Assembly: GCA_040261075.1 (NCBI GenBank)
Contig: JBDQOS010000080.1
Location: 1 to 25,117 of the forward strand
DNA: 25,117 nt
Direction: 5' to 3'
Origin: Flavobacteriales bacterium
GTDB lineage: Bacteria; Bacteroidota; Bacteroidia; Flavobacteriales_D; Sanyastnellaceae
The position numbers were made by a program, and so were the translations under genes. The notes beneath the pieces are model-generated. The model ran no database searches. It was not told where the DNA came from and saw only the letters and a list, made by a program, of their open reading frames with translations. Numbering within the stretch: position 1 is the first letter of the stretch; each line of letters starts with the position of its first letter. This document shows, one piece after another, positions 21,344-25,117 of this stretch.

Positions 21344-21422
21344 GTCTCGCAGGTGATGGCGGACAAGGTACAACGTTCAATTGAAGCGCGTTCCGAGATC
21401 TCGCGCACAGACCAACGACGAC

Positions 21423-22487
21423 TCAGGACGACTTGACGCCTTCGACGTGCAGGGTTTGGGTTGGGAACGCAAATTCAAGTCCGGCGGCGTTGAATCGCTT
21501 CAAAATCTCCAAGTTGATGTCGTTGGGAACATGCGCCCAGTGCTCCCCCTTGCGGATGAAGTAGATGGCGCTGACGTTGAGGCTGAAATCCCCAAACCCG
21601 CTGAACCACACCGTGTACTCGTCTTCCGTCCGGCCTGCCTCGGACACGATGTCGGTGAGGATGGACAAGGCCTGTTCGATTTGCTCGGGAGTCGTGTCGT
21701 AGGTGAGGCCGAGCACGACCTTCATTTTGCGCGAGGGCTCGGCCGTCACGTTCTCCACCACCTGATCTGTGAACTGGTGGTTGGGAATGGTGACGAGTCG
21801 GTTTTCCAGGGTTTTGATTCGGGTCGAACGAATGCCGATTTCCTGGACCGTGCCGTCGATGCCGTTGACTTTGATGCGGTCGCCCGCGCCGAAGGGCTTG
21901 TCAATGAACACGGTGATGCCGCCGAAAATGTTGGCAACGAAGTCCTTGGCCGCCATGGCCATGGCCAAACCGCCAATTCCGACCCCGGCGAGGAGTGCAC
22001 CGACGTCGTAGCCTGCGTTGGTCAGGCCCGAGATGATCCCAAGGATCCACACCAACGAACGCAGCGTCTTTTGAAGGATTGGGCCAAATTGCGCCACCGT
22101 GTCCCCGTCCGAGCGCTCGTCAAGGTGAAGGATGACGTTGCTTACGATGGAGTCCAACAGCCTCGCCACCAACCACGTGATGTCGATTGCAATGAGGATT
22201 TGGAACACGTGTTCCATGAATTGGTCCACGTTTTCCCCGAAGTGCAAATGCTCGTACCCCAACCAGAAGCCGAGAATCACAATGCCGAGAGCCACAGGCT
22301 CCTCAATTTGGTCGACAAGGACGTCGTCCCATTTGGTTTGGGTCTTGGCGGCAAGCCGCTTGAACACGCTCTTGAACAGCATGTACACAATGCGCGCCAC
22401 CACTGCGCTTCCCACAAAGTAGCCCAGCGCTTGGGCCCACTCAAGGAGGGGGTTGCCCAAAAACGCCGTGTCGGTCAAGAATTCCAT
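21423..22487 (-). CDS. Small-conductance mechanosensitive channel (MscS family)
   Basis: GYDVGALLAGVGIGGLAMAMAAKDFVANIFGG, DKPFGAGDRI, EIGIRSTRI, VTIPN and LEFAFPTQTLHV. Confidence 0.95.
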   Translation of the reverse strand: MEFLTDTAFLGNPLLEWAQALGYFVGSAVVARIVYMLFKSVFKRLAAKTQTKWDDVLVDQIEEPVALGIVILGFWLGYEHLHFGENVDQFMEHVFQILIAIDITWLVARLLDSIVSNVILHLDERSDGDTVAQFGPILQKTLRSLVWILGIISGLTNAGYDVGALLAGVGIGGLAMAMAAKDFVANIFGGITVFIDKPFGAGDRIKVNGIDGTVQEIGIRSTRIKTLENRLVTIPNHQFTDQVVENVTAEPSRKMKVVLGLTYDTTPEQIEQALSILTDIVSEAGRTEDEYTVWFSGFGDFSLNVSAIYFIRKGEHWAHVPNDINLEILKRFNAAGLEFAFPTQTLHVEGVKSS

Positions 22488-22535
22488 GCGCCAAACTTCG
22501 CACAAAATGCGCTTTTGCTCCCTCCTCAACGCGGG

Positions 22536-22543
22536 TATCTTTG
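22536..22543 (+). promoter_or_regulatory. -7 promoter element (TATCTTTG) with candidate -33 TTTG at 22514-22517
   Basis: Exact consensus 4 nt before the purK ATG at 22548. Confidence 0.7.
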
Positions 22544-22547
22544 CGCC

Positions 22548-23723
22548 ATGAATTCCGCTTCCTCTCCCTCACTCCCCCCCGTCGGTCCATCCCTGCGCCT
22601 TGGCGTGTTGGGAGGCGGGCAGCTGGGCCGCATGATGATTCAGGAAGCGATGAATTGGGACGTCCGAGTCGAAGTGATGGATCCGAGCGAAGAAGCCTCC
22701 TGCCGCCACCTCACGTCGCGCTTCGTCCAAGGGGACCTGCAAGACGCCTCAGCCGTGCGCGCGTTCGGGGACGGGCTGGATGTCCTCACCGTGGAAATCG
22801 AGCACGTCAGCGTCGAGGGCCTGCAAGCGCTCGCAGACGAAGGCGTTGAAGTCGTCCCTCGACCGGCTCACCTCTCCCTCATCCAAGACAAGGGCCTCCA
22901 AAAACAAGCCTACGAGCGTTGGGGCATCCCCAGCGCCCCGTACCAACTCATCGACGGCGTCGCGGACGTCGGCGCCATGGGCTTCCCCGTCGTCCAAAAG
23001 CTCCGCAAAGGCGGCTACGACGGCAAAGGCGTTCTAGTCTTGCAATCCGCAGAAGACGCCGCCGAACGCGGCTTCAACGCCCCGTCCGTGTTGGAACAAG
23101 CCGTCGACATCGACAAAGAACTGAGCGTCATCGTGGCGCGAAACGCCTCCGGAGCCACGGCCGTCTACCCCGTGGTGGAAGCCGTCTTCAACCCCGAAGT
23201 CAACCTGGTCGACCACTTGATGGCTCCTGCGGCGATTTCCGCACAGCTCGAAGCCGAAGCGCGTCACCTCGCCCTTGACGTTGTGACCTCCATGGATTTT
23301 GTGGGGCTGCTTGCGGTCGAAATGTTCTTGGACGGGGACGGCGCGCTTTGGGTCAACGAAGTGGCCCCGCGAACCCACAACAGCGGCCACCACACGATTG
23401 AAGGAAACGTCTGCTCGCAGTTTGAACAACATCTCCGAGCGGTGCTGAACCTGCCCTTGGGCGACACGTCTCCGCTTCACCCTGCAAGCGCGATGCTCAA
23501 CCTCATCGGGGCACCCGATGCCCACGGCACACCTGTGTACACGGGCTTGGAAGAGGTTTTGGCGTGGCCCAACGTGCACGTTCACCTCTACGGCAAGTCG
23601 ACGGTCAAGCCGCACCGGAAGATGGGGCACGTCACCGTCACCGGCCCAGATGTGGCCTCCGTTCAACGTGACGTGTTGAAACTTCGCGAACACCTGCAGG
23701 TCAACGGGACCAAAACCGCCTGA
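22548..23723 (+). CDS. purK: N5-carboxyaminoimidazole ribonucleotide synthase
   Basis: LGVLGGGQLGRMM, TVEIEHV, IQDKGLQK, KLRKGGYDGKG, NEVAPRTHNSGH and LYGK..KPHRKMGHVT. The 780-aa track ORF is an over-extension. Confidence 0.95.
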   Translation: MNSASSPSLPPVGPSLRLGVLGGGQLGRMMIQEAMNWDVRVEVMDPSEEASCRHLTSRFVQGDLQDASAVRAFGDGLDVLTVEIEHVSVEGLQALADEGVEVVPRPAHLSLIQDKGLQKQAYERWGIPSAPYQLIDGVADVGAMGFPVVQKLRKGGYDGKGVLVLQSAEDAAERGFNAPSVLEQAVDIDKELSVIVARNASGATAVYPVVEAVFNPEVNLVDHLMAPAAISAQLEAEARHLALDVVTSMDFVGLLAVEMFLDGDGALWVNEVAPRTHNSGHHTIEGNVCSQFEQHLRAVLNLPLGDTSPLHPASAMLNLIGAPDAHGTPVYTGLEEVLAWPNVHVHLYGKSTVKPHRKMGHVTVTGPDVASVQRDVLKLREHLQVNGTKTA

Positions 23724-23736
23724 CTTTTGAGGAAGC

Positions 23737-24753
23737 ATGGGCGCTTCCTCTCCCCTCCGCATCGCCGTCCTCGCCGGCGGTTTTTCCGGCGAAGCTGACG
23801 TCAGCCGCCGCAGTGCCGCCATGGTCATGGCGCACATGGACCGCGAACGGTTCCTTCCCTACCTCGTGAACATCGACCGCGACGGGTGGTGGACGCAAGA
23901 AGGCGACAACTCAGTGCGCTTGGCCATCGACCGTCAAACCCTCGGGTTTGAAGCGGCCAACGGCGACAAGGTGGTGGCTGACTTGGCGTTTGTCATGGTG
24001 CATGGAACCCCCGGCGAAGACGGCCTGCTCCAAGCCCACCTCGATTTGTGCGGGATTCCCCACACGACAGCGAGCGCCCGCGTCATGGCCACCACCTTTC
24101 ACAAAGGGTGGACCACCGCCTTGCTTCGCGACGCAGGCCTTCCTGTGGCGAGGTCCGTGGAATGCTTCCCGTCGGAGACGTGGGACGAAACGCGTGTGAA
24201 GGAGGTCGTCGCAGAGCTTGGACTTCCCTGCTTTGTGAAACCCAACGAATCGGGGTCAAGCATTGGCATCAGCCGCGTGACCGAAGCAAGCGAATTGTGG
24301 CCTGCGATTGAAGAGGCGCGCACCACCGGCACGAGCACGGTGTTGGTCGAGGCGCTGCTGGCGGGGCGCGAATTCACCTGCGGCGTGATCCCCGACGGTC
24401 ACGGCGGATTGCAGGCCCTGCCCGTGACTGAGATCGTGTCGCACAACGCGTTTTTTGACTTCGCGGCCAAGTACGACGGCCAAAGCCATGAAATCACCCC
24501 CGCCGAACTCGACGAACACGCGACTTCGGCCCTTCAAGAAACCGCGCTGGCGGTGTACCGCACCATGCACCTCCAAGGCATGGCTCGGGTGGACATGATG
24601 ATGGAGAAAGATGCCGCGCCCCACGTCATTGAAGTCAATGCGGTCCCTGGCTTCAGCGCCAAGAGCATCATTCCGCAGCAAGCCGCGGTCGTCGGCATCG
24701 AAAAATCCGCGTTGATTTCGCGGGTCATTGATGCCGCCCTCGACCGGGTCTAA
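23737..24753 (+). CDS. ddl: D-alanine--D-alanine ligase
   Basis: VLAGGFSGEADVS, VHGTPGEDG, FVKPNESGSSIGI, omega loop FFDFAAKY and IEVNAVPG. Confidence 0.95.
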   Translation: MGASSPLRIAVLAGGFSGEADVSRRSAAMVMAHMDRERFLPYLVNIDRDGWWTQEGDNSVRLAIDRQTLGFEAANGDKVVADLAFVMVHGTPGEDGLLQAHLDLCGIPHTTASARVMATTFHKGWTTALLRDAGLPVARSVECFPSETWDETRVKEVVAELGLPCFVKPNESGSSIGISRVTEASELWPAIEEARTTGTSTVLVEALLAGREFTCGVIPDGHGGLQALPVTEIVSHNAFFDFAAKYDGQSHEITPAELDEHATSALQETALAVYRTMHLQGMARVDMMMEKDAAPHVIEVNAVPGFSAKSIIPQQAAVVGIEKSALISRVIDAALDRV

Positions 24754-24760
24754 GGGTGGG

Positions 24761-24827
24761 CACAAAAAAAGAGGGCCACTCCGTCGAGCGACCCTCCCAC
24801 TGTTGAATGAAAACAAGTAAACTGTTA
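24761..24827. repeat. Direct repeat copy 1 (67 nt)
   Basis: Identical base for base to 25051-25117. Confidence 0.97.
24764..24796 (-). terminator. Rho-independent terminator, minus strand (copy 1)
   Basis: GAGGGTCGCT-CGACGG-AGTGGCCCTC followed by T7. The 10-bp stem needs two G-U pairs that form only on the minus strand. Confidence 0.85.
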
Positions 24828-24849
24828 ACGAAGCTTGCGCTTCAGGGTT
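24764..24849 (-). ncRNA. Candidate small regulatory RNA (~85 nt; 5' end approximate)
   Basis: Upstream TGTAACC-N16-CGTTAA, 5' hairpin UGAAGC-GCAA-GCUUCG, single-stranded U-rich core and intrinsic terminator. Confidence 0.6.
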
Positions 24850-24851
24850 CT

Positions 24852-24880
24852 TTAACGGGACCGCATCCTGAGAGGTTACA
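24852..24880 (-). promoter_or_regulatory. ECF-sigma-like promoter (-35 TGTAACC, -10 CGTTAA)
   Basis: -35 box at 24880-24874, 16-nt spacer, -10 box at 24857-24852, with A/T tracts immediately upstream. Confidence 0.5.
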
Positions 24881-25008
24881 GTTCGCTTAAAAAAATTCGA
24901 GCTTTTTTCCGGAAACGCCCATTTGACGGGAGTTTCAAGAGGTAAAAAATTCTATCTCCCGGCAAACGGGAACCAAATTTGGCCTCCGGCAGGTCCTTCA
25001 AAGGATCC

Positions 25009-25034
25009 CCATCCCGACCGACCATCCCGACCGA
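25009..25034. repeat. 13-nt tandem duplication (CCATCCCGACCGA x2)
   Basis: Exact copies at 25009-25021 and 25022-25034. Confidence 0.9.
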
Positions 25035-25050
25035 CTGGCTAGAAAACGTC

Positions 25051-25117
25051 CACAAAAAAAGAGGGCCACTCCGTCGAGCGACCCTCCCACTGTTGAATGA
25101 AAACAAGTAAACTGTTA
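25051..25117. repeat. Direct repeat copy 2 (at least 67 nt, cut by the window end); 3' part of a second candidate sRNA
   Basis: Identical to 24761-24827; period 290 nt. Confidence 0.97.
25054..25086 (-). terminator. Rho-independent terminator, minus strand (copy 2)
   Basis: Same stem-loop and T7 as 24764-24796. Confidence 0.85.

Follow-up and report, generated by a model that had tools for sequence, protein, structure and literature searches.

What is the element that lies between ddl and the broken end of a contig from an uncultured Flavobacteriales bacterium, and what might it do there? The 25,117-nt stretch analysed here (the window) is contig C25, which ends at base 25117 and belongs to a metagenome-assembled genome of 1.7 Mb (68% complete, 60% G+C). 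An initial annotation, made from the letters alone, had proposed a minus-strand small RNA driven by an ECF sigma factor, and each feature that it described can be found in the sequence: a T7 tract, TGTAACC-N16-CGTTAA, a hairpin with a GCAA loop, about 30 unpaired nucleotides and a terminator with a U7 run, all on the minus strand (Table 1). The element is very probably a gene for a small regulatory RNA that has not been described before, in an aquatic lineage of the Flavobacteriales, and we are highly confident that it represents a real, conserved and structured sRNA gene family organised in tandem copies.

Table 1. Features of the element at the contig end, and matches to its promoter elsewhere in the same genome (G000). 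Positions without a contig name refer to the window.
Feature	Position	Strand	Basis or remark
T7 tract	24889..24895	-	8 nt 5' of the -35 box; possible UP-like element
-35 box TGTAACC	24874..24880	-	family consensus yGwAACCtt; G and AAC at least 90% conserved
-10 box CGTTAA	24852..24857	-	family consensus CGTwA; 16 nt from the -35 box
Predicted sRNA, about 85 nt	24763..24849	-	fold, covariance model R1 (101 bits), alignment A1
5' hairpin GAAGC-GCAA-GCUUC	24830..24843	-	compensatory changes in 3/5 pairs; 97% of cells pair
Unpaired stretch	~24829-24799	-	sequence reading
Near-invariant unpaired segment AACAGUUUACUUGUUUUCAUUCAAC, 25 nt	24802..24826	-	conservation across the alignment
Segment core UUGUUUUCAUU	24816-24806	-	retained even in distant genera; contains the anti-start codon CAU
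Intrinsic terminator	24764..24798	-	13-bp stem (24798-24769), 4-nt loop, U7 run 24770-24764
Second copy (seed and terminator), 67 nt, 100% identical	25051..25117	-	sequence comparison; cut by the contig end
Inter-copy spacer	24898..25050	.	similar in the closest relative (G007)
ddl (D-Ala-D-Ala ligase)	23737..24753	+	Pfam match; convergent neighbour
sRNA-type promoter matches: porV, porP/sprF, PKD protein, secDF	G000:C78:972-999, C119:1062-1034, C119:6159-6131, C190:4545-4573		

Promoter geometry places the predicted 5' end of the RNA at 24846-24850, and an 87-nt RNA folds with a free energy of -31.5 kcal/mol (z = -3.87 against shuffles). The terminator had been described as a 10-bp stem with U7; the U7 run and the assignment of the strand by G-U pairs hold, whereas the stem length does not, as 13 pairs can form, with the first two U of the run closing the stem. 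A stem-loop followed directly by a U run and supported by covariation (99.9% of cells pair, 4 pairs with double changes) is what is expected of a rho-independent terminator, and several of its pairs are G-U in all or many of the sequences and would be C-A mismatches on the opposite strand, which fixes the minus strand. The intervening segment is predicted to be mostly unpaired, apart from a possible weak AACAG/UUGUU helix in which all 3 variable positions keep pairing. The second copy at the contig end was absent from the initial annotation. Because it is exact and runs off the contig, the contig must break inside a tandem array, which in the closest relative is flanked on the other side by ruvC. 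In the window's genome the element is restricted to this single locus, where the stop codon of ddl lies 10 nt from the end of the U tail. On the plus strand of the window (21381-23723) we also noted a 780-aa open reading frame with PurK-type domains only in residues 406-763 and no Pfam match in its N-terminal 400 residues; its listed TTG start may not be the true one, or the frame may combine two separate genes.

The element is widespread among relatives. BLAST searches of 60 relatives with 141 nt found it in all but one of the genus's 24 species (23 of 24), arrayed as 1-3 tandem copies (mostly 2-3), and in two other genera of the family; the window itself holds two copies, one of them truncated, and the 2-3 copies of most genus members have an identical seed. 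In the closest relative (G007:C20, L003:1872-1969) the second sRNA copy is broken by a stretch of N, and similar stretches occur in genome G013, which indicates that the arrays are poorly assembled or masked and that the copy counts given here are minimum values. A pattern scan of GTDB species genomes, in which the pattern itself fixed 21 bases of seed and stem, returned 56 further contigs, nearly all labelled as Flavobacteriales or Bacteroidota MAGs, and the unpaired segment is almost invariant, including the 11 bases outside that pattern.

Among 65 distinct sequences, column identity is 70-90% in the T tract and at least 90% in both the G and AAC of the -35 box and the CGT of the -10 box, compared with 30-60% in the spacer between the boxes (58 distinct spacers among the 65 sequences). 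Of 88 promoters, 79 share one spacer length, and the other 9 have a spacer shorter by 1 nt. Promoter blocks, their spacing and the 25-nt unpaired segment are conserved, whereas spacer and stems vary, and the stems vary in a coordinated manner. When the two-hairpin structure was tested on an alignment of 52 distinct homologous RNA bodies (A1), 99.1% of cells paired and double changes were present in 7 of 18 pairs, 3 in the 5' hairpin and 4 in the terminator; none of 500 shuffles matched the observed values, and partners slid by 1-3 columns paired in only 45-62% of cells. Covariation in related genomes had been suggested as a check on the initial annotation, and it is borne out by compensatory changes in both stems together with the conserved promoter, unpaired segment and terminator.

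A covariance model built for the element (R1) extended its reach when 150 genomes of the order were scanned, detecting a diverged form in 18 of the 21 sampled genomes of the family. Outside the family the matches were marginal and mostly terminator-like, one of them (G146) with a seed-like UUUGUUUUCGUUCAACA. The diverged form has another 5' hairpin (UCUC-AUGUA-GAGA), the shared core listed in Table 1, a covarying terminator and the same promoter as the main form, TGTAACC-N15/16-CGTTAAA; one copy was found per genome, and some of these genomes are complete and closed. As the initial annotation had supposed, the RNA belongs to no family recognised at the gathering score in a scan of the window against Rfam 15. 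The best sub-threshold match, suhB/mmgR, reached 18.6 bits against a cut-off of 41 and aligned mainly to the terminator, and our literature search returned no published description of this sRNA.

Public metatranscriptomes contain the element. At least 14 runs from about 13 studies (salt marsh, seawater, marine) contain at least 71% of the sampled words of the sRNA body; with a 418-nt query, RNA runs contain only 20-24% of the words and DNA runs up to 78%. Contigs from three salt-marsh RNA runs cover 24761-24895/24930 plus flanks of a related strain at 2-3.5x depth, and one of the three runs also has a piece of ddl at similar depth. Such contigs are blind to the strand and ends of a transcript, and their extension past the putative promoter and terminator may reflect DNA or read-through. 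Transcription of the predicted sRNA is plausible.

The nature of the promoter is central to any account of function. An AAC-bearing -35 box, a CGT-bearing -10 box and rigid spacing over a free spacer sequence make up the ECF signature named in the initial annotation, and they are unlike the TAnnTTTG primary-sigma promoters of this genome: among 158 candidates for the latter before long open reading frames, only 1-2 carry GwAAC at the matching distance. We consider it likely, with real room for doubt, that the sRNA promoter is of the ECF type. A position matrix trained only on the promoters of two sRNAs (that of the window and a second candidate described below) found 10 sites of at least 19 bits in the real genome, against 1 in the reversed sequence and 0-2 in Markov simulations, and 8 of the 10 were outside the training set, where about 1 would be expected. 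For weak matches the reversed sequence exceeded the real genome, and only the tail at or above 19 bits is informative.

Six of these eight sites lie ahead of protein genes, which encode PorV, PorP/SprF, a PKD-repeat protein of 1686 aa, two secreted proteins (one of 202 aa, the other at a contig end) and a 43-aa membrane peptide; the remaining two precede a tRNA and a third non-coding unit ending in a terminator; a site upstream of SecDF scores 17 bits. The gene for the PKD protein lies just upstream of that for PorP/SprF, and in both the -10 block ends 7 nt before the start codon, so that their mRNAs would be leaderless or nearly so. The porV site is retained in all three genus members examined. 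The exact promoter pattern was without enrichment over control in four distant family genomes and in G007, and the genes downstream of it in other genomes are heterogeneous. The envelope link that the initial annotation had drawn by analogy is independently supported by sites of the same promoter class ahead of porV, porP/sprF, the PKD surface protein and secDF; that the sRNA and genes of type IX secretion and the envelope have this promoter in common is, in our estimate, about evenly balanced.

The tRNA gene (G000:C278:410-560, plus strand) lies behind a hybrid promoter in which TGAAACC-N15-CGTA overlaps a canonical primary-sigma -7 box (TATCTTTG), with both blocks conserved in 13 genus members, and this overlap sits uneasily with a promoter reserved for stress. 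Elsewhere in the family, in other genera, porV is preceded by a similar arrangement, AACCTT-N12/13-GCGTATATTTG.

Two further non-coding units carry the promoter. The second sRNA candidate, of about 90 nt (G000:C243:2321-2440, plus strand), has a promoter of the same architecture (a T tract and TGTAACCTT-N13-GCGTAAG) and a body with GGUUUUGGUUAACC, a covarying GCGC hairpin and AUGAAUCAGGCGAUUUGG, followed by a terminator; it is present in 22 of 24 genus members, some of which have a paralogue, and has no Rfam match at E-values up to 1. The third unit (G000:C22:8742-8600, minus strand) follows CGCAACCTT-N13-TCGTTCA (19.5 bits), is about 110 nt long without a convincing open reading frame, and ends in a GGGAGGC-UUCG-GCCUCCC terminator with a U run. 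Its sole Rfam match at E-values up to 1, to BASRCII26, scored 16.6 bits against a gathering score of 218 and was attributed to chance.

Which sigma factor might read such a promoter? The window's genome encodes at least five ECF-type sigma factors, and orthologues of one of them (G000:C136:1486-2079, minus strand) occur in every one of the 41 family genomes sampled. Some 20 of 30 orthologous loci have (T/C)GCAACC-N13-nnGT(C/T)T(T/A) at 33-47 nt before the start codon, which is where an autoregulatory ECF promoter would lie. The -35 box and spacing of this motif match the sRNA promoter; its -10 box is GTCTT, not CGTwA, and within the window's genus two genomes have the motif with an 11-nt spacer, whereas a third lacks it. 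NCBIfam recognises the protein only as a generic ECF sigma factor, below every specific cut-off. The small single-pass membrane protein encoded 3' of it, for which we found no Pfam match, is possibly an anti-sigma factor. The remaining four ECF sigma groups were without the upstream motif. One of them (C113:293-898) has a different conserved upstream motif, TWAACC-N12-CCGTC, related but without the G. We offer the family-wide factor as the reader of the sRNA promoter only tentatively, and regard this assignment as doubtful.

The same observations bear on whether the promoter is of the ECF type at all. The sRNA may be real while GwAACC/CGTwA belongs to some other alternative sigma factor, or forms the operator of a regulator acting over a weak primary-sigma promoter, a view to which the overlap of the CGTA block with a TAnnTTTG -7 box before the tRNA, and before porV in other genera, lends some weight, as does the deviating -10 box of the candidate sigma gene. 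Yet in the sRNA promoters the TA is not followed by TTTG; a motif with AAC and CGT at a rigid distance is what marks an ECF promoter; the motif recurs 5' of secretion and envelope genes, as does an ECF-type motif in Flavobacterium psychrophilum (PMC9723704); and a family-wide ECF sigma gene bears a similar motif at the position expected of autoregulation. We therefore hold this alternative to be distinctly unlikely, and an ECF-type promoter remains the preferred reading.

The conserved unpaired segment invites a similar question about targets. It carries UUUUCAU, the complement of AUGAAAA, and its full complement reads A-AUG-AAA-ACA-AGU-AAA, such that the seed is the complement of a AUGAAAAC start region. 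A coding start of the form AUG-AAA-ACN is typical of signal peptides. Translational repression at start regions of the AUGAAAA type is thus a possibility that we rate somewhat short of even.

Searches for individual targets were less productive. A duplex-energy scan over all open reading frame starts was swamped by spurious reading frames in this 60% G+C genome. The sole site from a fuzzy seed-complement search of the window's own genome, itself 68% complete, was the start of a 111-aa lipoprotein gene (C46:1687-1706), which was rejected since the complementarity 5' of its AUG is missing in 18 of 20 orthologues. Across the genus, a 15-nt complement pattern gave recurrent sites, none of which was upheld as a conserved target: one at a symporter gene start is on the non-coding strand, another lies within a longer reading frame, and the rest are without a credible gene. 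The complement of the distant variant, run against five genomes, matched only unrelated signal-peptide starts, with little excess over control. As an observation apart, the start of the sodium:solute symporter-like gene in the window's genome (G000:C34:8559-8573) reads CUUGUUUUCAUG on the sense strand, which repeats the 11 nt of the sRNA core in identical orientation and is not complementary to it; 15-mers similar to it recur in at least 10 genus members, and may be coincidence or reflect a shared translation-initiation context.

Pairing in this organism would proceed without the usual chaperone. The Pfam Hfq family was not found in the window's genome or in four relatives that are 98-99% complete, whereas control genomes scored, which agrees with the Hfq-less host assumed by the initial annotation; the Hfq dependence that is a trait of enterobacterial envelope-stress sRNAs is not a feature here. 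The genome does encode a single-domain RRM protein of about 71-86 aa (G000:C99:4797-5009, plus strand), a possible counterpart of Bacteroides RbpB. Its gene is just 3' of C99:3193-4701, which encodes a thioredoxin-like protein with a signal peptide and has, at its start, a weak match to promoters of the sRNA type.

An RNA that acts without pairing to mRNA, as a protein-binding or sponge RNA that titrates, for example, the RRM protein or a ribosome-associated factor, would account for 25 invariant nucleotides, a length in excess of the usual seed. The RRM gene itself, tandem copies that suggest dosage matters, and target searches that gave no conserved mRNA target all point the same way. However, the segment is predicted to be mostly unpaired and holds an exact anti-start-codon motif, the similarly laid out GibS and FopS of Bacteroides act at start codons (PMC11697453), and the target searches were crude and made on a 68%-complete genome. 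On this evidence a role without mRNA pairing is improbable, and we continue to favour a trans-acting RNA that pairs with mRNA.

Proximity to ddl raises the alternative that the element is a cis feature of that gene, namely a bidirectional terminator with an antisense transcript controlling the ddl 3' end or read-through. A ddl homologue adjoins the element in 70 of 93 loci checked in the high-G+C clade, over several genera, in convergent orientation and about 10-40 nt from the ddl stop. The hairpin lacks a U run when read on the plus strand, so that ddl read-through would be fully complementary to the sRNA. Against this, the distant variant keeps promoter, core and terminator, yet ddl adjoins it in 0 of 10 loci. 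Array copies far upstream from ddl are equally conserved, and a terminator needs neither a conserved promoter nor a conserved seed to function. We consider a cis role very improbable, and the trans-acting sRNA again the better account.

A non-RNA origin, as a small protein gene (a 27-aa, ATG-started plus-strand reading frame lies opposite the seed) or as a dispersed repeat or mobile element (the sequence is present more than once), has a negligible chance of being correct, given that in 64 relatives the reading frame has frameshifts and any length between 7 and 35 aa, that both stems covary, that the RNA is assigned to the minus strand by its G-U pairs and U tract, and that the repeat is confined to one syntenic locus per genome without dispersal. 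The initial annotation's statement that the minus strand has no credible reading frame likewise stands, the 186-aa frame at 24816-24256 being merely antisense to ddl.

Comparison with described systems helps to place the element. MicA, RybB and MicL are the sigma-E-dependent envelope-stress sRNAs of enterobacteria, and by kind the sRNA described here is grouped with them, although it is unrelated in sequence and occurs in a phylum without Hfq. Like them, it is predicted to be a short RNA that starts from an ECF-type promoter, carries a conserved seed free of pairing and ends at an intrinsic terminator; its promoter motif is found in common with envelope and secretion genes, and its presumed role is that of the repressor arm of a sigma regulon that otherwise only activates. 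Unlike them, it has no sequence or Rfam similarity to the group, Hfq was not found in its host, its copies are in tandem and the putatively co-regulated genes are those of type IX secretion; and whereas the seed of RybB is at the 5' end, here it is mid-RNA, after the 5' hairpin.

Tandem multicopy sRNAs are also represented by LhrC1-5 of Listeria, which are induced by envelope stress and act at translation-initiation regions. FoxJ of Fusobacterium nucleatum is reported to be a sigma-E-dependent sRNA (PMC11005410). FoxJ and LhrC resemble the element as stress-induced sRNAs outside the proteobacteria, but they come from other phyla, have different regulators and show no sequence relationship to it.

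Closer in phylogeny are FopS and GibS of Bacteroides thetaiotaomicron, which pair with mRNAs for outer-membrane transporters close to the start codon and are associated with RbpB, an RRM protein (PMC11697453). The likeness is one of phylum, of multiple copies, of a single-stranded conserved seed before a terminator hairpin, and of an RRM protein encoded in the same genome. By contrast, FopS genes are dispersed and have canonical primary-sigma promoters, and GibS has the promoter motif 'PM2', which differs from the tandem arrangement and ECF-type promoter seen here (PMC11697453); nor does the sRNA match any described family in Rfam at the gathering score.

For the promoter, the nearest parallels are regulons rather than RNAs. 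The SM6 motif of F. psychrophilum is an ECF-type motif with a CGT -10 box; it is induced when nutrients are low and lies 5' of the T9SS genes gldN and porU as well as of an ECF sigma/anti-sigma pair (PMC9723704), and in Porphyromonas gingivalis the ECF sigma factor SigP binds the promoter regions of porV, porP and porT (PMC4800418). A comparable promoter here precedes porV and porP/sprF, so the gene content matches, but the motif proposed for SigP (PMC4800418) differs from the sRNA promoter. Neither study reports an sRNA in the regulon (PMC9723704, PMC4800418).

Taken together, these observations are best explained by a sibling sRNA with an ECF promoter that acts in trans as the non-coding arm of an envelope and secretion regulon, a reading that we think is probable if far from assured. 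In this model, at least two tandem gene copies between ruvC and ddl would encode a regulatory RNA of about 85 nt, whose transcription would most likely start about 7 nt past the CGTTAA -10 box, probably directed by an ECF-type alternative sigma factor recognising yGwAACC (-35) and CGTwA (-10), and would end at the strong intrinsic terminator. The predicted RNA would comprise three parts: a short 5' hairpin, the 25-nt near-invariant unpaired segment and the terminator hairpin. Because the promoter class is common to porV, porP/sprF, the PKD protein, secDF and at least one other conserved sRNA, the sRNA is probably the non-coding arm of that regulon. The UUUUCAU segment would then pair with the initiation regions of mRNAs beginning AUG-AAA-ACN and block ribosome entry, a repression that would work without Hfq and possibly with an RRM-type RNA-binding protein. 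A bolder version of this model makes the array the post-transcriptional arm of a T9SS/envelope ECF regulon: once the sigma factor is active, the sibling sRNAs would base-pair with the signal-peptide-coding starts of many mRNAs for secreted and outer-membrane proteins, throttling the secretion load as a class, without Hfq. We regard that version as unlikely as it stands.

What is known of RNA regulation in Bacteroidota comes almost entirely from gut Bacteroides, where the sRNAs described have primary-sigma promoters; our literature search found no sRNA linked to an ECF sigma factor or to control of type IX secretion in the phylum. The element supplies a candidate conserved across a family and a ready covariance model, with a defined promoter class that connects the sRNA to porV, porP/sprF and surface proteins, and a candidate sigma factor. 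The diverged form is carried by closed genomes, and if any of these come from cultured isolates the hypothesis would be directly testable. Arrays of sibling sRNAs exist in abundant uncultured aquatic Flavobacteriales, and, if the proposed account is true, theirs would be the first ECF-dependent sRNA described in Bacteroidota and the first RNA regulator tied to control of the T9SS.
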